Assembly (NCBI GenBank): GCA_963823335.1
Contig: CAWGLD010000005.1
Location: forward strand, 288,001 to 352,000
DNA from: an uncultured delta proteobacterium
GTDB lineage: Bacteria > Desulfobacterota > Desulfobacteria > Desulfobacterales > B30-G6
DNA: 64,000 nt
Direction of reading: 5' to 3'
The notes beneath the pieces are model-generated. The model was not told where the DNA came from and did no database searches. It saw only the letters and a program-made list of their open reading frames with translations. Positions 6,135 through 63,431 of the stretch are shown here, one piece after another. Each line of letters starts with the position of its first letter. Position 1 is the first letter of the stretch. Both the position numbers and the translations under genes were made by a program.

Positions 6135-7376
6135 CTATGAAATGTCCGCATATCGGTTTTGAATAGATTTCAGGATGCTGAGTCTGGAGAAGAATATTTC
6201 GATCAGTTCAGGATCGAACTGAGCACCCGATTCTTTTTCAATGGTTGTGAGAACGTCACTTTCATCCCAGGCTTCTTTGTAGACTCTTTTAGAGGAAAGG
6301 GCATCATACACATCCGCCAGGGCGACAATTCTGCCGAAGATAGGGATTTCATTCCCTTTTTTCCCCATGGGTTTCCCCTCGGGGGTCATACGTTCAGCCA
6401 GAGACTCGCCTGTCATCACATCAATATGGCCCGGGTATCCATGGCCATCCCAGCGTTCATGGTGGCTCAGGGCAACATCGAAGGCAGCCTCATCAAAATC
6501 TGACTGGGTGTTGAGAAATAACCGGGCTCCTAGAAAGGTATGCTGTTTCATGGTTTCGAATTCATCCTCATTAAAACGACTCGGTTTATTGAGGATGACG
6601 TCGGGAATGGCAACTTTCCCTACATCGTGCAACATGGCGGCCATACGGAGGCTATCCCGGTTCCGGTCAAATTCTTCTTTGGGCAGATTGTGTTTTCGCG
6701 CCCACTGTTCGTAAATTTCGATGGAATAACCACCCACACGGTTGACATGTGGTCCGGTTTCCTTCGGGTCCCGCATTTCAGACATGCGGATCATGCGAAG
6801 CAAAATAGATCGTGTCATCTGGGCGCGTTCTAGCGCCACGGCAGCTGTACTGGCAAAATGGAGCATGCATTTTTCATCGCTATCCGAAAATGGAATAATA
6901 TTTTTGTTTTCATCCTGAGCGTTGATAATCTGCAGAATGCCGAGAATATCCCCCCTGCGTGTTTTCAACGGAACAGTGATAACGGACCTGGTTTGGTAAC
7001 CTGACTCCTCATCAAATTGTTTCCCAAAATGGTAGGGCGCTGTTGGTTCAATCTCATAAACATTCGGGATGTTGAGAAGCTGACCTGTGGTAGCCACATA
7101 CCCGGAGATGCTTTCTTTGTTTATGGGCAGGGTAAACGTGGCGTAAATGAGTTTCCCGCCTTTGGGGAGGCGTTCCTGCAGGGTATCGTTCTGGGTATAG
7201 GTGAATTGAAGTGTATTCTCATCCGTGTTTCTGATATAGATAGAGCCGGCATCCGCGTTTACAAAACTTCTGGCGCATTCCAAGACACGCTCCATCAGAA
7301 TGTCAAGATCACGGACCTGATTCAGTTCAATTCCCAGGTAGGTCAGCTTGTCAAGTTTCTCTTTTTCACTGAGCAT
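6135..7376 (-). CDS. GAF + HD-GYP phosphodiesterase
   Basis: GAF domain (ADAGSIY, ISGYVATTG, LQIIN); ETGPHVNRV, LHDVGK, HHERWDGHGYP, ADVYDALSSKRVYK. Confidence 0.92.
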   Translation of the reverse strand: MLSEKEKLDKLTYLGIELNQVRDLDILMERVLECARSFVNADAGSIYIRNTDENTLQFTYTQNDTLQERLPKGGKLIYATFTLPINKESISGYVATTGQLLNIPNVYEIEPTAPYHFGKQFDEESGYQTRSVITVPLKTRRGDILGILQIINAQDENKNIIPFSDSDEKCMLHFASTAAVALERAQMTRSILLRMIRMSEMRDPKETGPHVNRVGGYSIEIYEQWARKHNLPKEEFDRNRDSLRMAAMLHDVGKVAIPDVILNKPSRFNEDEFETMKQHTFLGARLFLNTQSDFDEAAFDVALSHHERWDGHGYPGHIDVMTGESLAERMTPEGKPMGKKGNEIPIFGRIVALADVYDALSSKRVYKEAWDESDVLTTIEKESGAQFDPELIEIFFSRLSILKSIQNRYADIS

Positions 7377-7484
7377 GGGGTCTCCCCTCAATCAGTATCC
7401 GTAACCCGGGTCTGTCTGTGTAATCAGGCTATTTTAGGGTATGACGATAGGAAAGTCCAGTCTGTGTGTCGACAGAGAGTTCCA

Positions 7485-17543: not shown

Positions 17544-18520
17544 TGGCCAGCGAATATTTATTGAAAATAAAAGGCCTGAAAACCTATTTCGATGCTCGGG
17601 GCGGCGTGGTCAAAGCCGTGGACGACGTCAGTTTTTCCCTCAAACCGGGCCACACCCTCGGACTGGTCGGCGAATCCGGATGCGGAAAAAGCGTCACCGC
17701 CGCCTCCATCATGGGACTGATCCCGTCACCGCCCGGACGCAACGCCGGCGGAGAAATCCTGTTCGAGGGCGAAGACCTGCTCAAGCTCCCGGAATCCCGA
17801 ATGAAAAAAATTCGCGGCGCCCGTATATCCATGATCTTTCAGGAACCTATGACCTCCCTGAACCCGGTCTTTACGGTGGGCGATCAGGTGTCGGAAGTGA
17901 TTCGGCTCCACGAAAAACTTTCCAAACGGGATACACGTGATCGCGTGATCGAAATGTTTTCCCTTGTGGGCATCCCGGCGCCGGAAACCCGCATCAATGA
18001 TTATCCCTACCAAATGAGCGGCGGTATGCGCCAACGGGTGATGATCGCCATCGCCCTGGCCTGTTCGCCGCGATTGATGATCGCTGATGAGCCCACCACG
18101 GCCTTGGACGTCACAATACAAGCCCAGATTCTCGGCCTGATGAACAAGCTTAAAAGTGAAATTGGGGCGTCCATTTTGTTTATCACCCACGACCTGGGCG
18201 TGATTGCAGAAACCGCGCAACACGTGGCCGTCATGTACGCCGGGCAGGTTATGGAATACGCGGATGTCGGGCCGTTGTTCGAGGATCCCAAGCATCCATA
18301 CACGATTGGGCTCTTACGCTCGATACCGCGTGTGGGACGTAGCGAAAAACTGAAAAGGCTATCCACCATCAAAGGCACGGTGCCGTCTTTATTCAATTTA
18401 CCGAAAGGCTGTCTGTTTTCCGAACGATGTCCGGACGTCTTCGACCTATGTCAAAAGGCCAGACCGGATTTAATCGATTTGGGCGAAGGGCGGCAGGTGC
18501 GGTGTTATAAATATGTCTGA
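17543..18520 (+). CDS. dppD: Peptide ABC ATPase
   Basis: [25 protein letters not shown]-terminal Cys motif; TAATG overlap with dppC. Confidence 0.92.
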
Positions 18521-19502
18521 AACAGCCATGAATACGAATTTCAAGTTCCTTGTCGAAGTCAAGGATGTGGTGAAATATTATCCGATTCGGGGCGGGGTTC
18601 TGTTGCGGGAAGTCGCGCAGGTGAAGGCTGTGGACGGCGTATCCTTGGGCATCGCCCCCGGTGAAACCCTGGGTCTGGTTGGGGAATCCGGGTGCGGTAA
18701 GTCTACCTTGGGCCGAGTTGTTTTGCGCCTTGAAGACCCGACTTCAGGAGATGTGTTTTTTCAGGGCGAAAATATTTTAAAGTTCGGCAAGCAACGAATG
18801 CGCGGACTAAGAAGGCATATGCAGATTGTTTTCCAGGATCCGTTCTCCTCGCTCAACCCTCGAAAGAACGTCGAACATATTGTCGGTGAACCGCTTTTCG
18901 TTCACGGTATGACCAGCCGAAGAGAACGACGGGAAAAGGTTGTCGACCTACTGGATGTGGTTGGACTAAGGTCCGAACACCTGCGCCGGTTTCCACATCA
19001 ATTTTCAGGCGGTCAAAGGCAGCGGTTGAGCGTGGCCAGGGCCCTGGCCCTGAACCCGAAGCTAATTGTTTGCGACGAGGCGGTCAGCGCCCTTGACGTC
19101 TCCATCCAGGCTCAGGTGATCAATCTGTTTCAGGATCTTCAGGAAGAATTCGGCCTAACGTATCTCTTTATCTCCCATGACCTGTCCGTGGTCGAACACA
19201 TCAGCGACCGGGTGGCTGTAATGTACCTGGGGCGCATTGTGGAGCTGGCCGATTCCGACGAACTCTATGAATCGCCCATGCATCCGTACACCCAGGCCCT
19301 TCTGGCCGCGGCGCCTGTGCCGGACCCGAAAAACATCCCTGACCGGGTGGTGTTGACCGGCGACGTGCCCAGCCCCATCAGTCCGCCGTCGGGGTGCCAT
19401 TTCCACACTCGCTGTCCAAAAGCCATGAGTATGTGCAGTCAGAGCCCTCCGCGTATGAAAGAGCTGAAATCGGGGTACTTTGTGTCGTGCTTTTTGTATT
19501 AG
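18513..19502 (+). CDS. dppF: Peptide ABC ATPase
   Basis: [35 protein letters not shown]. Confidence 0.92.
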
Positions 19503-19824
19503 AGTTAATAATTTTTGGATATAGGGAAGTCATCTCCGTAATTGCGGATAAAGGATTCTTGTCTTGCTGTTTCAATGCCTGCTCCAGGGTCACAGCGACT
19601 CGATGAAGTCGAGTGAGCGATAAATTGCCGGAGGCGCCCTTGATGTCATGAATATTTTTTCCGGCGACTTCCCATTCACCGCCTTTTACGTGCACTCGGA
19701 TCGATCCCGAGGCCCCGGCGTATAAATATTGATAATCCTCGATTAACGACGCATAGAGTTCCATATCCCCAGCCAGGAGAGATGCGCCTTTTTCCATATC
19801 GATATCCGGCGTCTCCTCCTCCGA
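19500..19824 (-). pseudogene. Hpt-domain fragment of a hybrid histidine kinase
   Basis: PDIDMEKGASLLAGDMELY...HDIKGASGNL...LEQALK (Hpt HxxKGxxGNL motif); no N-terminal domains, and the frame runs into the end of dppF. Confidence 0.65.
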
Positions 19825-19907
19825 CTTTTCCCTCGAGCGCCGTTTAATGGGAAGTCAAGGTTTGCCGAGTCGCTTTGGGATGCATTCTTAACATCATCCG
19901 GAGATAT

Positions 19908-20069
19908 GCGAAACGTTGACGGAGACTTGCAGGCCGGGCTATTGAGCCGCGAAAGATGTGGCAAATCTCTGGGGCGTCGACGTCGTCCACAAGAACGGAA
20001 GGTAACATCGGCCACGTCGTTAACGCAAGACGTGGTCGAGCCGTGCGTGGTCAGAGACCCCGAGCATGT
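19908..20069 (+). ncRNA. Group II intron domain I remnant
   Basis: Ordered blocks gaaacgttgac..tgcaggccggg.tattgagccgcgaaa..cgacgtcgt..cggaagg.aaca..(hairpin ccacgtc/gacgtgg)..gcgtggtcagagaccccgagcatgt recall bacterial group II intron 5' domains; no RT gene or domain V seen. Confidence 0.7.
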
Positions 20070-20352
20070 TCTAATTTACTTATTTGTCATTGATTTTGAT
20101 GAGAAAACAGTAAGGCCAACCAAGGACAGCTTAGTAAGAAAAATCAGTAAAATTAGACATATTGGACATATCGAAAACAAACTTGTGCTCCAAGGTGTCG
20201 AGGAAGGCGTGGAAAATGTTGATGACGGACTGGCCTGGAGTATAGCCATTTCTAAAAAAACAGGTAAGGTTGTCCTATCGGCTTCGGGAAATGGCGTGGC
20301 GTATGTTGTATTTGGGACGTGTACCGCAGTTCAAGATGACTGGAATAAATGA
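20070..20352 (+). pseudogene. 5'-truncated conserved hypothetical protein (C-terminal part)
   Basis: FVIDFDEKTV...KLVLQGVEEG...WSIAISKKTGKVVLSASG..VAYVVFGTCT is protein-like; the first ~55 codons of ORF 19906 are translated intron sequence. Confidence 0.55.
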
Positions 20353-20400
20353 ATCTTAGAGCACTTTCGATCGAGATTGTACTTTCATCATAGCCGGCGA

Positions 20401-21834
20401 TTAACCAAAAGTAGGTAGTTTAGATGCCAAAAAGTGTTCCCCGTTGGAGATTATATCAGAACTATCCTCAGGACTGATCGGGTTGTTCAATAGCTCACAA
20501 GTCCTGTCTTTTAAGAGTTTATCGGCTCCTGGTTTTCCCAAATGCCTCCATTTATCAAGAGACAACTGCGGCCATATTTTGCTCGTAAACTGTGATTCTT
20601 TGAAGTATTTTCCGGTAAGGTTTGACAAGAAAAAATCTCCGCCAGCGCCGATGGAGGTTATTTCGGTCAATCCCACTTCTGCATCTTCCAGGGAAAATCC
20701 GGACGAGAAGATACGTGTCTGTTGAATTAAGTCATCGGCCAACACTACGATTTCGGGAGAGAAGACCAGTGAATCAAAACTGCTTCCCACGAATGGAACC
20801 AGGCCAACAGAACTCAATGCGCTGGTGAGATGGTTGATGCACATGGTCGTTGCGGTAAGCAAATCCGCACCCCACCCGTTTCCACAGCCGGATGTACCGC
20901 AATGGGGGATGTTGTAGGTGGTCATCATTTCAGCGCATGCCAGATTCAGCAACAATGACTTTGGAGAATAAAAACTGCCGGCTTGCTTCATGTCAAAGGC
21001 TGCCGGAAGACTTCCCAGGATGATGGGTGTTCCTTGCTTTACGAGCTGACTGTACACCAGTCCTGCCAGCAATTCCGCCGTAAGCAGTGCCAATGTTCCG
21101 GCTGGTGTGATCGGACAGGTCGCACCGGACATGCCGTAGTTTGAAAATATAAGTGGCAGCCCTCTTTTTATGGTTGCTTCCATTTTTATAGTGGTTTCAG
21201 AATTCAATACCAGCGGAGTGATCGGGTTCACATAGGGGATCACAAAAGGATGGGTGCTCAAATCACCGTGGAGGTGTTCACAAAGATCCAAGGCTGCATG
21301 AAAACAACCCGGATTGGAGATGAGCAACACGATCGGCTTGGTAGTATGAGCCACCATTTCCAAAACACCATAAAAATCAGCGGATTCAGGAGGAAGATCC
21401 TGGATAACGCCGGGGGTCGAAATCAAATCGAAGCCCTCAAGGCTGTGTCCAAGCCCAGTGGAAGCAGCCATATGTTTTCGGCAAAAAGGCAGGATTTCCT
21501 CCTTAAAGGGATCCTGGTAGTAAAGATTGGTAACACCGATGCCGAAAACAGCATCCAAACTCCCATCCCCTTTAAGTTCGAAGCAGGGTTTACCCAGACG
21601 GTCGTACACCTGTATACTGGATGGTGTGGAGGCAATCGCCCATTGAACGAGTTCTTTGGGCAGCCTTATGCAGTGATCCTTGTGGGTGGCTCCGATGGCT
21701 TTTTTCAGCACGGATCGGGCGCCTGGATCGTCAACGATCACACCTGTTTTCTCTAGAATTGATAGCGCATCCCGGTGCACTTTATTCACTTGCTCTTTCG
21801 TCAGAACCCTTATCTTCGGCTTCAGATCATACAT
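20401..21834 (-). CDS. mttB: Trimethylamine methyltransferase (MttB) superfamily, pyrrolysine-free
   Basis: VHRDALSILEKTGV, NPITPL, GATCPITPAGTLAL..AELLAGLV..QL..QG.P; no internal TAG. Confidence 0.88.
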   Translation of the reverse strand: MYDLKPKIRVLTKEQVNKVHRDALSILEKTGVIVDDPGARSVLKKAIGATHKDHCIRLPKELVQWAIASTPSSIQVYDRLGKPCFELKGDGSLDAVFGIGVTNLYYQDPFKEEILPFCRKHMAASTGLGHSLEGFDLISTPGVIQDLPPESADFYGVLEMVAHTTKPIVLLISNPGCFHAALDLCEHLHGDLSTHPFVIPYVNPITPLVLNSETTIKMEATIKRGLPLIFSNYGMSGATCPITPAGTLALLTAELLAGLVYSQLVKQGTPIILGSLPAAFDMKQAGSFYSPKSLLLNLACAEMMTTYNIPHCGTSGCGNGWGADLLTATTMCINHLTSALSSVGLVPFVGSSFDSLVFSPEIVVLADDLIQQTRIFSSGFSLEDAEVGLTEITSIGAGGDFFLSNLTGKYFKESQFTSKIWPQLSLDKWRHLGKPGADKLLKDRTCELLNNPISPEDSSDIISNGEHFLASKLPTFG

Positions 21835-22044: not shown

Positions 22045-22713
22045 TCAAGCAGTCAAATAGCCGTCTGGGAGAAGCCTTTCTAAATCAATGCCTCTCAAGC
22101 TGCTCTCCAAATGATTTTTTATTTCATTTCCAGCTTTTTCGGCTTCGTTTATCTCCAGGTATCGCACAATTTTGCGGTGTTCCTGTGGTGAAGGGTTGTT
22201 TGTCATTAGAAGTTGGTAAAACGGATCAAATAAGATAAGATAAATAGTTGTTTTCTGCAATAGCTCGGTCACGTAATGAACAAGCACTCGGTTGCCTGAT
22301 TTTTGTGCGATCTTTAAATGAAAAGCACTGTTGATTTGATAATATTTATCTAGTTTCCTGTCAGTAAAAACGCTTTCCTCCTCACAAATCAACGTTTGAA
22401 GTGCATCAATGTCTTCAGGATCAAATTTCCCAGCAGCCAAAGTGGTTGACATCTTTTCAAGTTGGGCCCGAACCTGAAATGACTCCTTAATATCCTCCAG
22501 AGACGGGTTGACAACGGAGACCCCCTTGTTCTGCCTATATTCCGCAAGACCTTCGTGGACAAGTCGTTTGAAAGCCCCTTTAACTGTGGCACGGCTCATC
22601 TTTAAATTCTTGGCCATTGGGACTTCTTTGAGTTTTTCCCCTTTTTTGATGTAGCCTCTGCTAATAGCAACCTTGATCTTTTCGTACGCCAAATCTTCCA
22701 AGTTATCTGTCAT
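22045..22713 (-). CDS. GntR/FCD transcriptional regulator
   Basis: wHTH MSRATVKGAFKRLVHEGL; FCD motifs NSAFH, SGN, EH, HL; RBS ggagg. Confidence 0.9.
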   Translation of the reverse strand: MTDNLEDLAYEKIKVAISRGYIKKGEKLKEVPMAKNLKMSRATVKGAFKRLVHEGLAEYRQNKGVSVVNPSLEDIKESFQVRAQLEKMSTTLAAGKFDPEDIDALQTLICEEESVFTDRKLDKYYQINSAFHLKIAQKSGNRVLVHYVTELLQKTTIYLILFDPFYQLLMTNNPSPQEHRKIVRYLEINEAEKAGNEIKNHLESSLRGIDLERLLPDGYLTA

Positions 22714-22828
22714 CGATACCTCCGGCATCCAAAGCAACAAACTAAAATGATTACGGTTTGAGACAATACGAGCCGGTTCTTCAGTTTTCGTGCATGCAAG
22801 GAATGCTTTGGATCGTTCTCGTTTCGCA

Positions 22829-25291
22829 TCAAATTTTGATTCTCTTCATTCCGGGATCATAGAACGGTTTTAAAGAAACGCTTGCTGGGTAGATGTTTCC
22901 AGCAATGTCGATTTCCCATAAGCCATCCGCGATATAAGCATCATTAATGACCTCATCAGCCTCGATCATAAACAAACCGACTGCACCGCCAAGCGTATAG
23001 CCATAGGAAGCAGATCTGACATATCCTGCTTGCTTACCATTTCGAGTAATAACCTCGGCATGGTATAACAGTGGTTCAGGATCATTGACCAACACCTGGG
23101 CGAGTCGCCGTTTCAGTCCACCCTGAGTTTTCTTTCGGAGACAGGCCTCTTTACCGATAAAGCCGGAAGCCTTATCCAATTTAAGCGTAAATTCCAAACC
23201 GGTTTCATATGGATCGTCCGTGTTATCCATATCATGGCCATAGTCGCGATATCCTTTTTCCATTCTCAAGCTGCCCAGAGCTTTGAGACCTGCATGGGAG
23301 AGGCCAAAGGCTTTTCCGGCCTCAACAATGATGTCGTAGATATGCGAGGCTTGTTCGGTGGGAATGTAAATCTCGTATCCCAATTCGCCCACATAAGTCA
23401 GCCTGACACAAATGGCACGACCGTACCCAATGGCGATTTCCTTGACGTGACGGTAGGGAAAAGTTTCGTTAGACATGTTTGTATCGGTTACTGCCTGCAT
23501 AAGTTCTCGAGATCTGGGTCCCTGGATATTGATTTGAGCATAAGCGGAGGTCATATCTGTTACAAAACAATGGGCGTCGCTGGGGATGTGCCGCTTCAGC
23601 CATGTTTCGGCATGCCGGTGCATGGTGTCTGTGACAACCACCATGTAGTTTTCCGCCGCCAGTTTGCTGACGGTAAGGTCCGCTTCAAGCTTACCGTCTT
23701 TGTTTAACCAAGGGGTGTAGGTGATCTGGTTCGATTTTCCGTCAACATCATTGGCTGAAATATAATTCAGCACCTTGCCAGCGTGCCGGCCCTGAACCAT
23801 AAATTTGGACATAAAAGACATATCCATGAGGACAACGTTTTCCCGCGCTGCATTGTGCTCCTCCTTCCAGAATTCGAACCACGACTCCCGATTCCAGGAA
23901 TGTTTTGCAATTTTGGCCTGTTTTCCATTAATAGCGAACCAGTCCGCGCCTTCCCAGCCGCTGACGTCTTTGAAATATGCACCCTGCTTTTTCAGGCGGT
24001 CATAGATCGCCGACCTTTTGGCCCCTCTGGCTGTATTCATGGATTTGTATGGATAGTGGCATGTATATACCTTGCCGAGGGATTCGACGGTCCGGTGTCT
24101 TCTGTATTCCGGGTTGTTCTGATAGGTGTGCAGTCGATCGATGTTAAATCCGGTAATATCGACATCCGGTTTCCCGTCCACAATCCAGTGCGCCATCATT
24201 CTGCCCAACCCGGGTCCCATAATAATACCGACGGAATTCAATCCGGCGGTCACAAAGTAATTCTTCAACTCCGGTGCTTCACCGACAATTGCTTGCAGAT
24301 CGGCAGTAAAACTTTCAGGCCCGCAGAAAAACTTCTTGATTCCCAGTTCCGTTGAAATAGGAACACGCGACATGGCTTTTTCAACAAACGGTCCCATGCG
24401 CTCCCAATCAGGTTCAATCTCTCCCATGGAGAAATCATCTGGTATGTGCTCGATATTCCATGGCGCACAGACCGGTTCAAACAGGCCAATCATCAACCCA
24501 CCCACTTCTTCACGATAATAGCCGTAATGAGAGGGATCCTCTAGAATTGGCATATTGGGCGGGATATCTTCGATCTCTTCAGTTATCAAGTAATAGTGTT
24601 CGGCTGCCTGGTTGGGAATGTTGACGCCAGCATCTGCACCAATCTGCCGTGCCCACATGCCGGCACAATTGACAACAACATCGGCCTTGATATCTCCGTA
24701 AAGTGTTTTAACACCGCTAACCGCACCGTTTTGCGTGATGATACCTGTGGCGGAAACTTTTTCAATGATCTGCACGCCTTGGTTGCGGGCACCTTTGGCC
24801 AGGGCGATGGTTGCATCAGCTGGGTTTACGCGCCCGTCTTCTTTTACATAAAAACCGGCTAACAAGTCATTGACACGGGCCAGCGGGAAGAGATCCTTGA
24901 TTTCTTTGGGAGAAATCTCATGCACATCCACACCACAGTAACGATTAAAAGCCGCTACGCGGCGGTATTCTTCCAATCTGTCTCGGTTACTAGCCGCTTC
25001 GATAAATCCAATTGGCGTGAATCCGGTCGATAATCCAGTTTCAGCCTCCAATCGGCTGTAGAGTTCGCGGCCATAAATTCTCATTTGGGTTGATGTTTCA
25101 GACATTGACCCAAAAGTCACCATCAAACCGGCGGCATGCCAGGTGGTTCCGGAAGTCAGTTCATCCCTTTCTATTAGCACCACATCCGCGCACCCCAAAA
25201 GGCCCAGATGATAGGCAATGGAGCAGCCGATAATACCACCGCCGATAATAACTACATTGGCTTGTTTGGGAAGTTCTACTTGTTTTGGCAT
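22829..25291 (-). CDS. GcvT-family FAD-dependent dehydrogenase (dimethylglycine/sarcosine/4-methylaminobutanoate type)
   Basis: GGGIIG, SGTTWHAAG, GPESFTAD, YVGELGYE, LRMEKGY. Confidence 0.92.
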   Translation of the reverse strand: MPKQVELPKQANVVIIGGGIIGCSIAYHLGLLGCADVVLIERDELTSGTTWHAAGLMVTFGSMSETSTQMRIYGRELYSRLEAETGLSTGFTPIGFIEAASNRDRLEEYRRVAAFNRYCGVDVHEISPKEIKDLFPLARVNDLLAGFYVKEDGRVNPADATIALAKGARNQGVQIIEKVSATGIITQNGAVSGVKTLYGDIKADVVVNCAGMWARQIGADAGVNIPNQAAEHYYLITEEIEDIPPNMPILEDPSHYGYYREEVGGLMIGLFEPVCAPWNIEHIPDDFSMGEIEPDWERMGPFVEKAMSRVPISTELGIKKFFCGPESFTADLQAIVGEAPELKNYFVTAGLNSVGIIMGPGLGRMMAHWIVDGKPDVDITGFNIDRLHTYQNNPEYRRHRTVESLGKVYTCHYPYKSMNTARGAKRSAIYDRLKKQGAYFKDVSGWEGADWFAINGKQAKIAKHSWNRESWFEFWKEEHNAARENVVLMDMSFMSKFMVQGRHAGKVLNYISANDVDGKSNQITYTPWLNKDGKLEADLTVSKLAAENYMVVVTDTMHRHAETWLKRHIPSDAHCFVTDMTSAYAQINIQGPRSRELMQAVTDTNMSNETFPYRHVKEIAIGYGRAICVRLTYVGELGYEIYIPTEQASHIYDIIVEAGKAFGLSHAGLKALGSLRMEKGYRDYGHDMDNTDDPYETGLEFTLKLDKASGFIGKEACLRKKTQGGLKRRLAQVLVNDPEPLLYHAEVITRNGKQAGYVRSASYGYTLGGAVGLFMIEADEVINDAYIADGLWEIDIAGNIYPASVSLKPFYDPGMKRIKI

Positions 25292-25317
25292 TGACGTTCC
25301 TTTTCAGATTTAAATCG

Positions 25318-25539
25318 CTATTTCTCAGAGTCTAAAACCAACTGACCATAATCAAAGGTGATGCCGCTTTCAAGCATCCCTGGCCCATAAATCATATTGG
25401 CACCTGCCAACGCGGGTATGAGCGCGGTTAATGTCTTTTCGTGGCCGGTCTGTGTATCGGATTGCTTGCTGTCAGCCTATCCACCAGCCATAGCCATGGA
25501 CAGGATATTGCAGACCACATTGTTTCTAACCGCCTCCAT
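25318..25539 (-). pseudogene. mttB: Remnant of a pyrrolysine-type MttB with in-frame amber codon (TAG at 25477-25479)
   Basis: Manual translation: [79 protein letters not shown], the Pyl-site segment of MttB. Confidence 0.85.
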
Positions 25540-25583
25540 CTAAGTTAACAACTTATTTTAATGCCTTACAGAACTGCCAATAT

Positions 25584-25612
25584 ATTGTCAAACAAAAATT
25601 GTTCGACATTAC
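25584..25612. promoter_or_regulatory. Possible tandem GntR-type operators upstream of the mttB-remnant operon
   Basis: attgtcaaacaa and aattgttcgacatt (TGT-N3-ACA dyads) in an AT-rich divergent spacer. Confidence 0.3.
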
Positions 25613-25699
25613 TGATCGAAAATTATCTAATTGTTTTGCGTTTAATCAAAATGCTGCGGTAAATAGCAATCATAGTTCTTAAAAATGGAAAAATGAACT

Positions 25700-26014
25700 A
25701 TGGTATTACATCAAGCTGCGCTGATCAATTTTACAATGAAAGTTCTCGAAAGTAAGGGTCATGTTAGTGACGGTGATATTGAGGCGTTTAAGGGTGCTGG
25801 ATTCACAGATGCCCATACAGCAGAGATAACGGTGATAATTGCCCATAAATCGCTTTCCAATCTTTTCAATCACATATACGATACAGATCTTGATCTGCCC
25901 TCAGTCCCTAGATATATAGGTAACAATTTACAGCATCGTGCCCAGGGGAGGGCTCAACATTTATCTTTGCCTGCCAAATCAATGGTGGATCATTTTTCAT
26001 GCATTCAGATATGA
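25700..26014 (+). pseudogene. C-terminal fragment of an AhpD/carboxymuconolactone decarboxylase family protein
   Basis: KGHVSDGDIEAFKGAGFTDA...SNLFNHIYDTDLDLP; the CxxC-bearing N-terminal half is missing. Confidence 0.7.
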
Positions 26015-26937
26015 AACCAGATAATTCTGCCCTGGCATTTATTGGAATTTGTCGGGTTCATATTCGTGCAGCGCTTGTTTTGGGATATATCACATGCAAT
26101 CTGGCTTTTTGGATCACGCCCCTGTTGGTGCTGGTGGTATTCAAATGGTTTGTGCCAATCTCTTCGGTGCGAACCGGTATTTATGGGATGATGGCATGGA
26201 TTTACAGGGCCGCAGTCCAGATGAACGACTGGATCTTATTTCAAGGTCTGAAAATTCAATTGGACCTAACGGGAATCAATCAAACTTATCCCGGCAATTT
26301 CTATTTAGCACTATGTAACCATCAGAGCTGGAGCGATATTTTTATCCTGCAACATCTTCTCAATCGCAAAACACCCATCATGAAATTTCTGGTCAAAAAG
26401 GAATTGATGTACCTTCCTGTGGTTGGTTTGATCTGCTGGGCATATGATTTTCCGTTTTTAAATCGTGGGAAACAGACAAAAAAAAGATTCGGGAAATTTA
26501 ATCGTGTGAATGATTCTCAAGCGCTAAATAAGTCACTTACCCAATTTTTGCGGTCTTCGGCAACCATCATAAATTTTGCGGAGGGGACCCGATTTACGTC
26601 ACTTAAGGCCAAAAGGCAACAATCCCCATACCAATATCTCCTGAGACCTAAGGCCGGTGGGCTTATTGCCATCTATAAAATGATGGGCCAAGAGTTGGCG
26701 GCTGTGCTGGATTTTACAATTGTATATGATGCACCCAAGCCGAATTTCTGGCGCTTTATCTGCGGCAAAATTCAGCGTGTGAAGATTCATCTTGATACAA
26801 TCTCATCAGACGAGCTTAAAGAGAATTTAGGCTTGCCGGAAGCCGACTTTAATTCTGACCGTGCAATTGAATGGATAAATCAGCGCTGGGAGCAAAAGGA
26901 TAGAAAAATTGAACATATCTCTTCCGATTTTGGTTGA
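26011..26937 (+). CDS. PlsC/YihG-like acyltransferase
   Basis: NHQSWSDI, KFLVKKEL..LP..G...WA.DFPF, FAEGTRF, LLRPKAGG. Confidence 0.9.
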   Translation: MKPDNSALAFIGICRVHIRAALVLGYITCNLAFWITPLLVLVVFKWFVPISSVRTGIYGMMAWIYRAAVQMNDWILFQGLKIQLDLTGINQTYPGNFYLALCNHQSWSDIFILQHLLNRKTPIMKFLVKKELMYLPVVGLICWAYDFPFLNRGKQTKKRFGKFNRVNDSQALNKSLTQFLRSSATIINFAEGTRFTSLKAKRQQSPYQYLLRPKAGGLIAIYKMMGQELAAVLDFTIVYDAPKPNFWRFICGKIQRVKIHLDTISSDELKENLGLPEADFNSDRAIEWINQRWEQKDRKIEHISSDFG

Positions 26938-27013
26938 CCAATCTCCATTACTCTTTGCGTTTGCAATGATAATAGTTTTTTTAACAAAAAATCCTTTATT
27001 CATTTTCCGATAT

Positions 27014-27823
27014 ATGACCACTGAAGAAAGGAAAGATATTCATCGACTTCTATTGATTCTTTTGGCTGGAATGGTACTGGCCGGCTGCACCGTCGGGGCA
27101 CTATCCGGTGGCGAGCATACGCGCAGCACTGACCCTAAGGATATTTTGGACAAGACCTGGCAGTGGGAATCGACCATCACCCCAGTCGAAAAGATCACGG
27201 TGCCGAATCCGGAGCGTTACACGATCCTGTTGACTGCCGATGGCAGGGCTCAGATTCGGTTCGACTGCAACCGCGGCGGCGGGGAGTTCAAAAATTCTCT
27301 TGGCAAGCTTTCCTTTGGTCCGCTGCTGTCCACACGCATGGCCTGCCCGCCAGGCAGTCTGGACAGCGCCTTCATGCGGGACCTGCAGCGGGTGGTTTCC
27401 TTTTTCGTTGACAGCGACATACTTTATCTGGAGCTGCCGCGTACCGCTGAGGCCGCGAAGCTGGTTTGTGAGGATGCTTTGGCCGTAAAAGAAGCCGGGG
27501 CCCTCATGCTGCTTGTCGAAGCGGTGCCGCCGGAAGTTTGTGGATTCATTGCGGGACAACTGGATATTCCGGTTCTTTCGATCGGCGCCGGACCCGAAGG
27601 CGATGGACAACTGTTGATTGTTTCAGATTTGATCGGTCAATTCCAGGCATTTACACCTAAATTTGTAAAAAAATATTGCAATGTGGCTGAAATCATAACC
27701 AATGCCATGAAAGAATATTGTGAGGAAATCCGTACCGGCCAATTCCCCCAAGAGGAGCATTGCTATCGGATGATACAGGGCGAAGAAGATAAGTTCGTAG
27801 AATTGATGAAAACAGCTAAATAA
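27014..27823 (+). pseudogene. panB: In-frame chimera: META-domain lipoprotein + C-terminal half of PanB
   Basis: LAGC lipobox, DCNRGGG, STRMACPPGS, LYLELP; then from ~27440 RTAEAAK..EDALAVKEAGA..LLVEAVP, IGAG..DGQLLIVSDLIG, PKFVKKY, FPQEEH. Confidence 0.8.
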
Positions 27824-27865
27824 TTGGTGACCGATTTACTTGCTTTAATTAAGGAGATATTTACC

Positions 27866-29131
27866 ATGCCAGAACTCAGAGAAAGTCTTAAAATAGCAGC
27901 TGAACGCGTGGATGTGATCAATGAATTCTTGTTAGACCCGAACAATGCGATGGTCAACCAACTTCTTGAAATTATGGAACGTTACGGTGGACCACAAGAG
28001 ATCAATCGCAAGGCTAGCGAAGCACGAAATCTGGACCACATTATGGATCAGCTCAAAACCCAGAATTCGCCTTATGTGCTGGATTTGGAATGGCTGATGG
28101 AGCAACGGAATGCCAAAGCATTTATCTCCATGGCGGAATATCGAAATCGGGTTATGGGTCAAAAGGTAACGGAGAGCGAAATCAACCAAGAAAATGCGGT
28201 CACGCTCGAGATCAGTGCGTTGCAGTACTTTCCTTGGCTGATATCTCAAGCCAAACAAGCCATTCAAAAGAAAGAATTGATGCCGGGGCGCTATATCAGG
28301 GTGCGCAATATGGCAGAACAAACTAACGATCAGGGAGACACACTTGCCGTAGCCGCAGGTATGCAGATTGTCGGGGCATCTTATGTCGAAACACTAGATA
28401 CCAAAGGAATAGATGGATCCAATGTACACTTAGGAGGTCCTGAAACCATCACCGGATATTTCGGTGGTATTGGTCAGCCCAACGAATACCCGCTCAAATG
28501 GATCGATGAATACCTTAAGTACTATACCACCTACGGTATTAAACAAGTGCTCAACATTAATGCCGGATCCATTCTGGCAGCCTATCTTCTCCACCGCATG
28601 GGAGTTGATAATGAATTCAAGATATCCGTGTTTATGGGTATCGACAATCCGTATTCCATATTCTGGACGCTGATGACCGCGCAGATGTTCTCGCGACCGG
28701 ACGGAAGCACCTCGTTAATTGGCTTCAATTTGTCCAATTCTGTAAACAACGCTACCATCAGGGAAGCCGCAAAAATCAGGAAAGCATTGGGTCTTGAGAA
28801 GGTTGTTCGCTTCGAGCATCATATTACGGAAACATATAGATCAATAGTGCGCCAGCCCTATAATCGAAGAGAAGAACTCGTGGAAATTGCCAAAGAGGTC
28901 CCCAATATCGCCGCCAAGCACGAGGGTGGAGAACCGGAGAGGGAAGCTACCTTGGAACATCCCTCCGATATTCTGGATTACTTTTTGCCAAAAGCCGAAG
29001 TTGTTGAAAATGGGTTAATGGATACGCTAATGCAAAATTATCTTGAAAAACACTATGCCTTGAACCTTACGGCTGATGCACTTACCAGGGCAGGTATCGG
29101 GGTGGTATGTGCGACCAACCTTCATCAGTAG
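27866..29131 (+). CDS. Conserved hypothetical ~420-aa protein, possibly a U32-like TIM barrel
   Basis: Uninterrupted ORF with RBS aaggag; motif-like blocks SYVETLDTKG, GYFGGIGQP, FKISVFMG, RFEHHITE, AKHEGG. Confidence 0.85.
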   Translation: MPELRESLKIAAERVDVINEFLLDPNNAMVNQLLEIMERYGGPQEINRKASEARNLDHIMDQLKTQNSPYVLDLEWLMEQRNAKAFISMAEYRNRVMGQKVTESEINQENAVTLEISALQYFPWLISQAKQAIQKKELMPGRYIRVRNMAEQTNDQGDTLAVAAGMQIVGASYVETLDTKGIDGSNVHLGGPETITGYFGGIGQPNEYPLKWIDEYLKYYTTYGIKQVLNINAGSILAAYLLHRMGVDNEFKISVFMGIDNPYSIFWTLMTAQMFSRPDGSTSLIGFNLSNSVNNATIREAAKIRKALGLEKVVRFEHHITETYRSIVRQPYNRREELVEIAKEVPNIAAKHEGGEPEREATLEHPSDILDYFLPKAEVVENGLMDTLMQNYLEKHYALNLTADALTRAGIGVVCATNLHQ

Positions 29132-45312: not shown

Positions 45313-45783
45313 TCAGGCGATCAGATAGGTCCCTGTTCCCACAGCGATTAGCCGATGCTGGTCATTATGAAGCTCCATCCGGGTTACGGCAACTTTATTG
45401 CCGATACGCATAATTGAGGCGCAGGATGAAAAAGAACTGCCCTTTCCGGGTCTCAGATAATCGACGCGCAGATCGAGGGTGCCGACCCGGGCGATGTTCT
45501 CTGCAATTTGTTCTTTTGGGTGATTCTTTTTTTTTTGAATCATTCCTGCCGTAGCCATCAAACCGCCAGCTACATCCAGAACGGACGATATCACACCACC
45601 GTGCAGGGAACCCTGGACATAATTGCCGATGAGGGAATCGGTCAGATCAAAGGCAACTTTAACCAGATCAGGCTTCAGATCGATGATGTGCAAACCGAGA
45701 ACCTGGTTGAAGGGAAGTCTGTTTTCATAGATGTCTCCAAGGAAATGCAGCAGTTCATCCAGTTTTTCGGGTTGGCCTGGCAT
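45313..45783 (-). CDS. Hot-dog fold thioesterase (PaaI/YigI-like)
   Basis: LHGGVISSVLDV.GG, TLDLRVDYLRPG. Confidence 0.9.
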   Translation of the reverse strand: MPGQPEKLDELLHFLGDIYENRLPFNQVLGLHIIDLKPDLVKVAFDLTDSLIGNYVQGSLHGGVISSVLDVAGGLMATAGMIQKKKNHPKEQIAENIARVGTLDLRVDYLRPGKGSSFSSCASIMRIGNKVAVTRMELHNDQHRLIAVGTGTYLIA

Positions 45784-45810: not shown

Positions 45811-47274
45811 CTACTTGAACCAAAAATTCTGTTTTTGTGATGCTTTCGCGTTGAAGGCTTCATCCGCTATTATCTGTCCTGTCTCAGACCTGAGAGTGTA
45901 CCACGACTGACGAAGGGCCACAAGTGCCAAGGCTGACCGGGTCTGTGTTGAAGTTAGCTCCCGTTGTGACTCGTTGAGGCGCACCAGGGAAACCTGGCCG
46001 GCCTTGTATTCCTTTTCGACAAGATCACGGTTTTCCTGGACGAGTCGGGCATTGGACTGCTGGAGCCTCAGTTGGGTCTGGAAGGTAATAACGTTTTGAG
46101 CTGTGGCACGGATTTCCGCGGTGATGTTTGTCTTCAAAGATTCCATTCGCTTTCTGGTTTCCATTTCTTTTTGCACAGCTTCCCTATACTGGGCGCGGTA
46201 CAGTCCTCCGGAAAACAGATTAAATGTCATGTTGAGACCGATGGTGTTTCCGAAATCATCGCTCTCGAATCTGGTATCATCCTGCCTGTCTCCGCTGACG
46301 GATGCCGTGAGATTTATGGTGGGTGCGTATTTTGAGTTGGCCATCTTTTTCTCGAGGGACGCATTTTGAATCGCCAGGCGGCTCTGATGTATTTCCGGCC
46401 GATGTTCTAGTGCGTAGACGATCAGCTGCTCGGTATCTGGTATCTGCATTTCTTGTGGGGACGCTTTTTCAAGGGGTGCCAGTTTTACATGTACCGGCAA
46501 CGAGGCGTCTGCAAGACCCAGTAATGCTGCCAGGCTATGCAGGGTGGCCCTGAAAACGCCCTCTGCTTGAATTCGGTCGGAAATGGCGGCGTTGACTTGA
46601 ACCTCAAAACTGAGTTCATCGCTCAGGGAGCCGGTACCGATTTTGCGTCGGTTGATGGCCTCTTCCAGAAGACTTTTGAAAAAAGATTCATCGGCTATGG
46701 CAATATTGATATTTTCCCGTGCCAGCTCAGCTGTTAAAAAAGATGCCGCCACCGAGGACAACAACAACCGTCTGGCATCGTCCCATGCAGAAATCATTTG
46801 CTCTTTTACATTTTGGGTCTGGCGCAGTTTGTACAGCCGTTCAAATCCATCGAACAGCAGCCAGGTGGCCGTGAGACCGGCGCGGTAACGGTCCTGGGGA
46901 TCATCGATGGTGGCGCCGGGATCAAATATCCTGGCGGAATCGAGGTTCTCCTGGTAATCATTTTCGGGCATCCAGATCCTGGAAACAGAGGCGTTTGCAT
47001 CGAGCCGGGGCCAGTAGGTGGAGCGAGCCTGGGCAATCCGTTCCATGGCCTGATTGATGCGTATCTCGGTCGCCTGAACGGAAGGATTGTCGGCCACGGC
47101 AAACCGCTGGGCTGTTTTCAGATCAAGAAACTCGATTTTTTCCCAGTCAAGGGGAAGGCTCTGATCCTCCAATGTATAACTGCTTGCACCGACATGGTGA
47201 CCAAGACCCTGAAACAGAACCAAGGCCAGTATCAAGCAGCAAATCATTTTGCCTGTTTTGCTGTTGTGATTCAT
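45811..47274 (-). CDS. TolC family outer membrane protein
   Basis: Signal peptide; NPSV, YWPRLD, LFDG, HRPEI, LFSGG; last gene of the RND set. Confidence 0.9.
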   Translation of the reverse strand: MNHNSKTGKMICCLILALVLFQGLGHHVGASSYTLEDQSLPLDWEKIEFLDLKTAQRFAVADNPSVQATEIRINQAMERIAQARSTYWPRLDANASVSRIWMPENDYQENLDSARIFDPGATIDDPQDRYRAGLTATWLLFDGFERLYKLRQTQNVKEQMISAWDDARRLLLSSVAASFLTAELARENINIAIADESFFKSLLEEAINRRKIGTGSLSDELSFEVQVNAAISDRIQAEGVFRATLHSLAALLGLADASLPVHVKLAPLEKASPQEMQIPDTEQLIVYALEHRPEIHQSRLAIQNASLEKKMANSKYAPTINLTASVSGDRQDDTRFESDDFGNTIGLNMTFNLFSGGLYRAQYREAVQKEMETRKRMESLKTNITAEIRATAQNVITFQTQLRLQQSNARLVQENRDLVEKEYKAGQVSLVRLNESQRELTSTQTRSALALVALRQSWYTLRSETGQIIADEAFNAKASQKQNFWFK

Positions 47275-60974: not shown

Positions 60975-63431
60975 CTATTTGATTTTTGTTCTATACAGTC
61001 TCAGGCTGTTCGTGACAACCGTGACACTACTGACGGACATGGCCAGCGCGGCCATGATGGGGTGCAATTCTCGCAGAAAACCAGGCGCGGCCTGAAACGG
61101 ATAGAGGATACCGGCGGCAATGGGTATCAAAGCGAGGTTATAGAAAAAGGCCCAGAACAGGTTCTGGCGGATAGTTCGCATGGTGGACCTGCTGAGATGT
61201 ATGGCCCGGGACACACCAATGAGACTGTTGCCGGAGAGGATAATACCGGCGGTTTCTATGGCAACGTCCGTACCGCTGCCGATGGCCATACCCACATTTG
61301 CAGTGGCCAGGGCAGGGGCATCATTGATACCGTCTCCCACCATGCCGACTTTGTGACCCTTGGCCTGAATCATTTCTACGGTGGATGCTTTTTCATCGGG
61401 TCGTACTTCCGCATAGACATTATGGATCCCGCATTGGGATGCAATCACCTCTGCCGTCTGTTGGTTGTCACCGGTAAGCATGCCCACGTCGATGTGCATA
61501 TCCTGCAACGTTTTAATGGCTGTCCTGGATTCGGATTTGATGGTGTCGGCAACGCTAATGAGGCCGTAAATCTTCTGGTCGGCGACCACAACCATGACGG
61601 TTTTCCCCTCGGACTGCAGGGTCTGGATCGTGTCGGACGATGCTGCCAGATCCATTGACACCGCAGTATTTTGATTGAGAAACCATTTGGGTTTACCGAC
61701 CTTGACCATTTTCCCGTCGATGTCGGCTTCAACACCCAGACCACCGGATGCCTTGAAGTTTTCAGGTGACGAAAGTTCAATGGATCGATTTCCAGCTTCC
61801 TTTACGATCGCTTTTCCCAGGGGGTGCTCAGAGCCTTTTTCTACCGATGCCGCGAGCCTGAGCAACGCATCTGCTGTCTTGCACATGGGTTCGAAAGGCA
61901 GCACATCAACCACGGACGGCTTGCCCATGGTAATGGTGCCGGTCTTGTCCAGAAGAATGGTGTCAAGGCTGGATGCAGTCTCCAGGGCTGCACTGTCCTT
62001 GAACAGGATATTGTTTTCAGCACCTTTACCGGTTCCCGCCATGATGGCTGTCGGCGTAGCCAGACCGAGAGCACAGGGGCAGGCAATCACCAGCACGGCC
62101 ACCATGCGGATCATGGCCGGCACGAATTCGCCGCCTGCCCACCACCAGAGAAAAAAGACCAGAAAAGCGATGATGATAATGGTCGGGACAAAGATGGCGG
62201 CCACCTTGTCAGCCAATGCCTGAATAGGTGCTTTGCTTCCTTGGGCCTCCTGCACCAGTTTGATGATCTGAGCCAAAGCGGTTTCCTTGCCCACGCGGGT
62301 TGCTGAAAATTGCAGCATGCCCTGACCATTGATGGTGCCGCCAATGACGGTGTCTCCGATCTTTTTATCCACCGGCAAGGGTTCTCCGCTCAACATGGAT
62401 TCATCTACGGCTGAAGCTCCTGAATGGATGGTACCGTCCACCGGTATTCGTTCCCCCGGGCGAACCACGACGATATCATCTTTTTTTACGAGCGTCAGAG
62501 GGACCTCTTTTTCAGTGCCGTCTTCAATGATGGTGGCGGTCTTGGGTCTGAGCCCCATGAGTTTGCGGATAGCGCCGCCGGTTTTCCCTTTGGTCCGGGA
62601 CTCAAGCAGTTTGCCCAGTTTAATGAGGGTGATGATGACGGCCGATGTTTCGAAGTAGACATGATTCCCCAGAGAGGAAAACAGAAGCAGAGCCAGTGAA
62701 TACACATAGGCCACCGAAGACCCCATGGCTACCAGAACATCCATGTTGGCGCTCTTGTTTTTAAGGCTCTTGAAGCCCCCCACGTAGTAGTCCCAGCCGG
62801 TATAAAACTGCACCGGCGTGGCCAGGGCCAGGAAAAGCCAGTTGACCCAGGTTGCATGACTCCAGGGTCCTGTCAGATGGAAATCCCTGGCCATGCTGAG
62901 GAGAAAAAGAGGCAGGGTGAAGATCACACCGATGAGAAATTTACGGGTCTGGTTTTGGATTTCCGCATTTCGGGCAGCTTGCTCTGCGTCTTCTTCCCCG
63001 GTATCTTCGGGAGGAATGACACCATAGCCGGCGTTGGTTACCGCAGCATAGATGTCATCCGGCGTGGTGATTCCCGGTATGTATTCCACAAACGCTCGAT
63101 CGGTGGCCAGATTGACGGAAGCCTTGGTAACACCCTGGACCTTTTTGTTTAGAGCGCGTTCGATATTGGCCGAACAGTTGGCGCATGTCATGCCCGTGAC
63201 CGGGAAATCGATGTCAGCCCTGGGGACTGAAAATCCTATACTATGTATCTTGGATAGAATCTCTTGGAGATCGACCTGTTTGGGGTCGAACTGAACCGAG
63301 GCATGCTCCGATGCAAAATTGACGCTAACACCATCCACACCATTCAGCTTGGCCACGTTGCGCTCGATATTCATGGCACAGTTGGCGCATGTCATGCCGG
63401 TGATGGGAAGTATTAGTTTTAATGTACTCAT
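60975..63431 (-). CDS. copA: Cu(I)-translocating P1B ATPase
   Basis: Two GMTCANC HMA domains, [29 protein letters not shown] and MxxSS. Confidence 0.95.

Follow-up and report, generated by a model that had tools for sequence, protein, structure and literature searches.

The 64,000-nucleotide stretch of DNA analysed here (contig CAWGLD010000005.1, positions 288,001 to 352,000; called the window in the following) carries on its minus strand, at 25539-25318, what is very probably a non-functional relic of the pyrrolysine (Pyl)-dependent trimethylamine:corrinoid methyltransferase gene mttB, left behind at its ancestral site in an uncultured Desulfobacterales-type bacterium. The relic makes up about 15% of mttB and has preserved the in-frame amber codon at the pyrrolysine position. 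The patchy use of pyrrolysine in bacteria and archaea is usually explained by transfer and loss, and direct relics of loss have rarely been pointed out. The remnant is a clean pseudogene of an ordinary kind, formed by deletions in a well-known gene of a group whose use of pyrrolysine was already established. We infer that its amber codon is a fossil of pyrrolysine decoding in the lineage and does not by itself testify to current decoding.

The region appears intergenic, because under translation table 11 the frame of the remnant holds only two open reading frames (ORFs) of 30 amino acids (aa) each. Read through the amber codon, the frame is delimited by an upstream TAG at 25542-25540 and a closing TAG at 25320-25318, both on the minus strand. 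A preliminary description of this DNA, made from the letters alone, had given the same coordinates and minus-strand reading with the TAG at 25477-25479, which proved exact on re-reading the sequence, and its estimate of about 70 surviving codons out of about 480 compares with the 73 of approximately 490 codons counted here. The elements of the remnant are the following.

25539-25318, minus strand: Pyl-type mttB remnant, 73 sense or amber codons in one frame, 222 nucleotides (nt)
25539-25481, minus strand: segment A, about 20 codons (MEAVRNNVVCNILSMAMAGG), equivalent to codons ~234-253 of intact Pyl-type mttB
25479-25324, minus strand: segment B, the amber codon and 51 further codons, equivalent to codons ~333-385 of intact mttB
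25479-25477, minus strand: in-frame amber TAG at the pyrrolysine position, directly 3' of the internal deletion junction
25479-25380, minus strand: match to Rfam RF02510 (PYLIS_3, 'pyrrolysine insertion sequence mttB'), model positions 1-100 of 100, starting at the TAG
25323-25318, minus strand: AAA-TAG, non-homologous, 3' of the breakpoint, closing the frame
25306-25292, minus strand: conserved spacer and ribosome-binding region (AAAAGGAAC) up to the ATG of the downstream gene, identified by blastn and spacer alignment

The encoded peptide was identified by matches well above chance level. The read-through peptide matches the Pfam family MTTB (PF06253) with 31.4 bits (cut-off 25; E value 6.9e-8) over positions 335-391 of the 500 profile positions. 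Equally, a phmmer search against the chains of the PDB identified trimethylamine methyltransferase as the best match (7xcm_A, E 1.2e-20; 7xcl_A, E 8.3e-20), with peptide residues 19-75 aligned to chain positions 329-385 and the amber codon to chain position 334, occupied by X in 7xcl and by K in 7xcm; X334 of this Methanosarcina barkeri MttB structure (7xcl) is pyrrolysine. The structures of family members without pyrrolysine (9yce, 2qne and 4yyc) reached only E values of 2e-3 to 6e-3 and possess a sense residue opposite the TAG. The Pyl-type MttB context recognized in the preliminary description is thereby borne out, with PDB matches to MttB at E ~1e-20 and the TAG on chain position 334, and the possibility also raised there, that the peptide fails to align to MttB, is not what Pfam and PDB returned. 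In a second, weak stretch of the same PDB search, peptide residues 7-23 fall on chain positions ~238-255 (a stretch listed as 238-291 for 7xcl), which gave the first hint of an internal deletion. Similarity to the family of Pyl-dependent MttB (PF06253; NCBIfam TIGR02369, trimeth_pyl) and an in-frame UAG are consequently both present, but a full-length frame of ~490 codons is not, as only 73 codons in two pieces occur within the 64-kb window, which identifies a pseudogene remnant and not a functional member of the family.

The amber codon is conserved throughout the closest relatives. A scan of genome contigs gave 397 pattern matches, 188 of them encoding a relative, and the best 80 loci (L001-L080), with 75-85% identity, bear Desulfobacterales-type names or broader labels. 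The codon opposite the TAG of the window is TAG in 80/80 of these best loci (of the 188), so that the canonical residue which, according to the preliminary description, the best homologues of a gene hit by a plain nonsense mutation would carry was encountered in none of them. A frame of at least 482 codons is open around this single TAG in 76/80 loci, and in the remaining four, with 335-444 codons, the fetched DNA ends near the gene. A protein search limited to longer proteins gave 607 matches at E ≤ 0.001 among 730 candidates; of the 120 matches listed, 115 have a length of 150-187 aa and 5 of 489-494 aa. The best are C-terminal fragments of 150-166 aa, 93-96% identical over the post-amber part, with named short matches from Desulfamplus, Desulfobacter, Desulfobacula and other Desulfobacterales, and the three short proteins inspected all start just 3' of the pyrrolysine position. 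Such short C-terminal proteins are expected, as gene callers stop at TAG. The Rfam model PYLIS_3 scores 78.8 bits on the remnant (gathering score 38; E 2e-14), with intact mttB genes as controls giving 83.9 (L058), 82.8 (L001), 81.6 (L057), 80.8 (L035) and 76.8 bits (L049). As the model has few base pairs, this match would mostly reflect conserved coding sequence 3' of the UAG and would not prove an insertion signal.

The breakpoints of the remnant follow from comparison with the relatives. The whole window was searched by tblastn with read-through MttB proteins (X at the TAG) from 5 of the 80 loci, which gave two pieces only, 25491-25324 with 84-89% identity over 56 residues and 25539 to approximately 25480. 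Further mttB pieces were not detected in the window with these five proteins, the other matches being a paralogue of 23-24% identity at 20401-21834 and alignments with E > 0.8. At the nucleotide level, 25539-25481 aligns by blastn to nt 691-749 and 25488-25324 to nt 979-1143 of the mttB gene of locus L019, and the identity to the genes of the relatives is 76-89% for segment A and 80-86% for segment B. At the junction, where ATGGCTATGGCTGGTGGA is followed directly by the TAG, both ancestral flanks encode (M/V)-A-G-G and have about 8-11 nt in common; the internal deletion of 237 nt, equal to 79 codons, is in frame and occurred at this short repeat. The 5' onset of homology is abrupt at 25539, the ATG of a conserved internal methionine (I-M-E-A in the relatives), and mttB 5' of codon ~234 is gone. 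On the 3' side, homology ends at 25324 in the alignment with L035, L058 and L057; 19 unalignable bases follow before homology resumes from ~25306-25303 (L058, L035, L057, L002 and L040). The 3' loss, comprising the end of mttB and part of the spacer, amounts to ~340-356 nt (~356 nt relative to L058).

The genes that follow the remnant on the same strand link it to the mttB locus of the relatives.

22829-25291, minus strand: FAD-dependent oxidoreductase with GcvT-type aminomethyltransferase part, 820 aa, intact (DAO, FAO_M, GCV_T and GCV_T_C)
22045-22740, minus strand: GntR/FCD regulator (Pfam GntR and FCD), downstream of and co-directional with the oxidoreductase gene
20401-21834, minus strand: non-Pyl MttB-superfamily protein, 477 aa, intact, no internal stop (Pfam MTTB, E 2.7e-49)

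The oxidoreductase gene, which starts 27 nt downstream of the remnant, encodes a protein with a dimethylglycine/sarcosine-dehydrogenase-like domain make-up that is 82-83% identical over 817 residues to its counterparts in L057, L049, L071 and L063. A counterpart with at least 45% identity is present in 43/80 loci, always (43/43) as the next gene 3' of the Pyl-type mttB and in the same orientation, separated from it by a median of 44 nt; examples are positions 10556-13021 of L049, where etfB and etfA come next before tRNA-Pyl, and 9845-12295 of L057. Since the same oxidoreductase adjoins mttB in all 43 loci and the spacer with its ribosome-binding region is conserved, the remnant is considered to lie at the ancestral site. 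The GntR/FCD regulator is 67-70% identical to its counterparts in L049, L050, L062 and L040. The non-Pyl paralogue shows 72-74% identity to the corresponding protein of L049, L050, L057 and L048, only 23-24% to read-through Pyl-type MttB, and has a glycine betaine methyltransferase (9yce, E 5.5e-28) and a putative methyltransferase (2qne, E 3e-28) as best PDB matches.

The arrangement of these genes in the relatives is different. In L049, where all partner genes lie within 10 kb, one strand encodes in order the non-Pyl MttB, the GntR/FCD regulator, an ABC ATPase, a permease and a binding protein; on the other strand, the Pyl-type mttB is followed by the oxidoreductase gene, etfB, etfA, a tRNA-Pyl (CUA), a B12-binding corrinoid protein and four further genes, namely a radical-SAM protein, an ATP-grasp protein (PylC-like N-domain with 23.6 bits, cut-off 27), a PylD-domain protein and a class-II synthetase-like protein. 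These four are read as probable pylB, pylC, pylD and pylS. The GntR gene is upstream of mttB and on the opposite strand in 23/23 loci that carry it. None of the genes to the right of the remnant (25700-29131) is matched in any of the 80 loci at E ≤ 1e-10. The gene order of the window, from which alone this step is deduced, would require at least one inversion or translocation besides the deletions.

Neither the pyrrolysine machinery nor the partners of methylamine metabolism have been detected in the window. ARAGORN found no tRNA (0) in the 64 kb, and NCBIfam identified no pyl, corrinoid-protein (mttC/B12-binding) or electron transfer flavoprotein family among the 49 window proteins. In tblastn searches of the window, EtfB, EtfA, MttC and PylB/C/D/S of L049 gave nothing better than E 0.08, and the B12-binding part of MttC nothing at E ≤ 1; apart from a generic likeness of ABC ATPase and permease to the dpp genes, the matches were at chance level, with pylC at E 0.08-0.5. 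The tRNA-Pyl of L049 found only words of 10-11 nt in the window by blastn. Among the relatives, ARAGORN called tRNA-Pyl in 6/15 loci scanned, and blastn with the L049 tRNA revealed a similar sequence in 22/80 loci. Where the fetched DNA reaches 9 kb or more beyond mttB (44 loci), pylB is present in 23, pylS in 22, tRNA-Pyl in 17 and mttC in 15. As a side aspect, the tRNA-Pyl genes called by ARAGORN in L049, L035 and L001 were missed by an Rfam scan at gathering thresholds, and screens by Rfam only may therefore overlook tRNA-Pyl.

The lineage of the window is consistent with that of the fragment. The GuaA protein encoded in the window has its best named matches in a 'Deltaproteobacteria bacterium' (93%) and a 'Desulfobacterales bacterium' (92%), followed by Thermodesulfobacteriota and Desulfobacteraceae at 77-79%. 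In a quick maximum-likelihood tree of the oxidoreductase with 44 rows, the window is placed with support 100 inside a clade of 33 rows that holds Desulfosarcina and Desulfobacula/Desulfobacter, with the Desulfotignum rows and one Desulfamplus row outside; this tree derives from a quick search, has an arbitrary root and contains one doubtful row (L036) with a branch length of ~5, maybe a faulty extraction. Because GuaA, the flanking genes and the fragment all match the same Desulfobacterales group, vertical descent would be the simplest reading and a foreign donor would not be needed. The preliminary description had left it at either the lineage or a DNA donor having used pyrrolysine, a choice which the GuaA identity of 92-93% and the orthologous site upstream of the oxidoreductase gene tilt towards the lineage.

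The degree of decay is small. The remnant shares 66/73 residues with its best relatives, and of 41 columns invariant among 79 relatives (1 of the 80 was dropped, as it is without both segments) it differs at one (A4V); in leave-one-out counts, 72 of the 79 relatives differ at none and 7 at one of such columns. By the Nei-Gojobori method, the median ratio of non-synonymous to synonymous substitutions (dN/dS) is 0.050 between the window and the relatives, calculated from the 58 of 80 pairs with dS of 0.3-5 after exclusion of 22 saturated or undefined ones, and 0.064 among the relatives themselves (2891 pairs). Non-synonymous divergence has a median dN of 0.085 in comparisons with the window and of 0.064 between relatives, and the median dS is 1.37. 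This pattern of substitutions indicates that nearly all of the divergence would have accrued under purifying selection and that the loss would be recent relative to the divergence of the sampled relatives. By our own arithmetic, the neutral period since inactivation would have been short, corresponding to at most a few percent substitutions per site.

The use of TAG as an ordinary stop codon has also been considered. TAG ends 12/50 of the window ORFs of at least 90 aa and 12/45 (27%) of those of at least 150 aa; in 34 loci with pyl genes it ends 123/445 ORFs (27.6%), or approximately 89/411 (22%) by our own arithmetic if each of the 34 loci is assumed to contribute one N-terminal mttB ORF that stops at the Pyl TAG, and in the other loci 131/432 (30.3%). 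As the preliminary description stated, the genes for HD-GYP (6135-7391), dppF (18513-19502), tolC (45811-47274) and copA (60975-63431) do end in TAG, with NCBIfam matches that reach the profile ends. Its further conclusion, that amber decoding is limited in context or lost, does not follow from these stops, as the same share of TAG (27% versus 27.6%) is found where pyl genes are present, and the TAG stop frequency has been rejected as a test of pyrrolysine use. Beyond the TAG of the 12 long ORFs, the frame extends for 1-20 codons in 11 cases and for 165 codons in the TolC gene, and no sign of another Pyl gene was seen among these 12 ORFs of the window. In the case of the TolC-family gene (minus strand), the 165 codons run through the next gene, a complete thioesterase (45313-45783), and as both proteins match their families end to end, the shared frame looks like a coincidence rather than read-through.

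Integrating these data, the following course of events can be proposed. The ancestor would have possessed the locus of the relatives, with divergent genes for the ABC transporter, GntR and the non-Pyl MttB, followed by the Pyl-type mttB and the oxidoreductase gene and, as in some relatives, also etfBA, tRNA-Pyl, mttC, pylBCD and pylS. At least one inversion or translocation would have placed GntR and the non-Pyl MttB behind the oxidoreductase, and deletions would have taken most of mttB and, from the same place, the genes for the corrinoid protein and pyrrolysine. The relic would now be at most leader or promoter-proximal DNA of the oxidoreductase gene; since 85% of the protein is gone, it encodes no methyltransferase. 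The retained genes would be workable without pyrrolysine, as the non-Pyl methyltransferase could feed dimethylglycine to the oxidoreductase under the control of GntR. It is possible, though proposed tentatively and at somewhat less than even confidence, that the genome has been caught soon after giving up pyrrolysine entirely, with the 222-nt remnant and its intact amber codon and PYLIS stretch as the sole trace, the single Pyl-type mttB destroyed, the block of tRNA-Pyl, mttC, pylBCD and pylS deleted and the oxidoreductase re-joined with GntR and the non-Pyl MttB as a Pyl-independent module for methylated amines, plausibly for the route from glycine betaine via dimethylglycine to sarcosine.

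Several observations weigh against the proposed relic and its history. A locus with an intermediate arrangement was not found among the 80 loci. Furthermore, no pyl gene or tRNA-Pyl is located near mttB in 17 of the 44 loci with a long (≥ 9 kb) downstream flank, so that the absence of the machinery from the window is weak evidence for its absence from the genome. A second, intact mttB together with a pyl cassette could reside elsewhere, and a genome that still uses pyrrolysine, with intact mttB(Pyl), mttC and pyl cassette moved or duplicated and the fragment as the decayed copy at the old site, has to be taken as a serious possibility, if one that we would not rate as the probable state of affairs. 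The identical share of TAG stops in the window and in the pyl-carrying loci is in line with this alternative, as is the clearly rearranged locus, since rearrangement can move genes and not only destroy them. On the other hand, each of the best 80 of the 188 loci comes from a different genome record and none gave two of the 80, the fragment sits at the orthologous site of the relatives' copy, and pyl genes, mttC and tRNA-Pyl were not found within the 64 kb.

The fragment is also tidy, with a conserved ATG at its start, an in-frame deletion, no frameshifts and a dN/dS as low as that of working genes, features that are compatible with recent loss and also with a retained role. Retention for a function, either as a short ORF (20 aa if translation stops at the amber codon, 73 aa if it reads through) or as a leader or regulatory element of the oxidoreductase gene only 27 nt further downstream, could account for the intact frame from the ATG, the deletion by a multiple of three, the single change in 41 invariant columns and the dN/dS of ~0.05, but is judged very unlikely. 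The ATG is the ancestral internal methionine codon of mttB and not a new start, it is not preceded by a purine-rich ribosome-binding site, and 85% of the enzyme is gone. Promoter-like sites occur at chance level in 25200-26100 (3 versus 2.9 expected); 3 terminator-like sites (0.8 expected) were counted in the same interval, from which no conclusion on the transcription of the oxidoreductase gene is drawn. A low dN/dS is also to be expected if most of the divergence predates a recent loss, and the synonymous sites are saturated (median dS 1.37).

A further alternative is an artefact of assembly or binning, such as a chimera or the collapse of reads from cells that still possess an intact mttB. 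The source is probably metagenome-assembled, its closest named relatives are metagenome-assembled genomes (MAGs) and three separate breaks inside ~250 nt are unusual. However, the flanking sequences are coherent on both sides, with a downstream spacer and gene in the same order as in the relatives, a GuaA entry of 100% identity stems from a contig of up to 498,830 bp, the gene order around the fragment is rearranged over several kb as well and the junction repeat of ~8-11 nt is, in our judgement, short for a collapse by the assembler, so that an artefact appears highly improbable.

Finally, the five full-length proteins of the database search (P0003, P0004, P0006, P0036 and P0100; 489-494 aa) show S, A, W, L and L, respectively, at the pyrrolysine position. 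They are 62-75% identical over the fragment and more distant than the 80 TAG loci; judged from these proteins, relatives of the Pyl-type clade with sense codons may exist, or the residues may be artefacts of translation. One of the five is named from a Dehalobacterium MAG. Despite these sense residues and the common occurrence of non-Pyl MttB homologues, one of them 3.5 kb away, a plain nonsense mutation in a non-Pyl MttB-family gene or horizontal transfer from an unrelated Pyl-using donor can practically be dismissed, as TAG is present in all 80 closest loci, the fragment matches Pyl-type MttB at E ~1e-20 versus ~2e-3 for non-Pyl structures and with 23-24% identity for the neighbouring non-Pyl paralogue, and flanking genes and GuaA indicate the same Desulfobacterales relatives as the fragment.

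A conserved locus in marine Deltaproteobacteria with a Pyl-containing trimethylamine methyltransferase, a binding protein, a regulator, a non-Pyl methyltransferase, the cognate corrinoid protein and pyl genes has been described by Kivenson et al. (2021; PMC8318568). The words 'sarcosine' and 'electron transfer flavoprotein' are absent from the main text of that paper, and 'dimethylglycine' appears once in another context. Compared with the Desulfobacterales Pyl-MttB locus as represented by L049 and L035 (Desulfospira joergensenii DSM 10085), the window is alike in 66/73 residues, the position of the amber codon and the PYLIS_3 score and carries the same genes for oxidoreductase, GntR and non-Pyl MttB paralogue. 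It differs in that it keeps 15% of mttB, is without the ABC-transporter genes, etfBA, tRNA-Pyl, mttC and pylBCD/pylS and has GntR and the non-Pyl MttB downstream and co-directional, whereas GntR of the relatives is upstream and divergent (23/23). MttB of Methanosarcina barkeri (7xcl, 7xcn and 7xcm) is a functional archaeal protein of 503 residues, in contrast to the fragment of the window with its 79-codon internal gap and no N- and C-terminal parts. With the non-Pyl MttB superfamily (9yce, 2qne and 4yyc) the fragment has Pfam PF06253 in common, but carries TAG where these proteins have a sense residue.

Erosion of genes for pyrrolysine and methylamine use has been reported from 'Candidatus Methanovorans' (ANME-3), with relics that show truncations and insertions (PMC12180501). 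The two cases resemble each other in the descent from pyrrolysine users and the preservation of pathway relics; the ANME-3 case differs as it is archaeal, mainly concerns pyl biosynthesis genes and is tied to the switch to methanotrophy. The ANME-3 study also took TAG stop frequency as a signal, which is non-discriminating in the window. Evolutionary scenarios that assume multiple losses have been put forward (PMC3941956). Among open-access papers and preprints, no report of a bacterial mttB relic with a retained amber codon was found.

The fragment proves that an ancestor of the lineage had a Pyl-type mttB at the same site, with exact breakpoints given. If the complete loss of pyrrolysine is true, it would provide a datable bacterial case of a genetic-code expansion that was reversed and show which parts of such a locus are useful without pyrrolysine. 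Equally, it holds a warning for annotation, as gene callers overlook fragments of this kind, and neither a PYLIS_3 nor an MTTB match is equivalent to current decoding of UAG as pyrrolysine.

Some further features of the neighbourhood are recorded here. Within the gap of ~900 nt between the end of dppF at 19502 and the 3' end of the non-Pyl MttB gene at 20401, the plus strand at 19866-20060 matches RF02005 (group II intron D1-D4-6) in full length with 87.5 bits (gathering score 49). No reverse-transcriptase ORF or further intron domain was found in 19300-20500, and an ORF of 148 aa (19906-20352) that overlaps the match has no Pfam family at E ≤ 1; the element may be an ORF-less or truncated intron that borders the rearranged block. 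To the right of the remnant, an ORF of 104 aa (25700-26014, plus strand) overlaps the start of a YihG-family acyltransferase gene, and an ORF of 435 aa (27824-29131, plus strand) is located further right. Both are without a Pfam match at E ≤ 1, an NCBIfam match or a counterpart in the 80 loci, and a resemblance of the 104-aa ORF to AhpD-like proteins is unsupported, the Pfam search at E ≤ 1 being empty. An ORF of 304 aa between them (26909-27823, plus strand) combines a META domain (residues 82-175) with the C-terminal third of PanB (residues 178-282; profile positions 155-259 of 259). As an N-terminal PanB part was not seen among the window proteins, this ORF, ~1.4 kb from the mttB relic, may represent a second truncated or fused gene.

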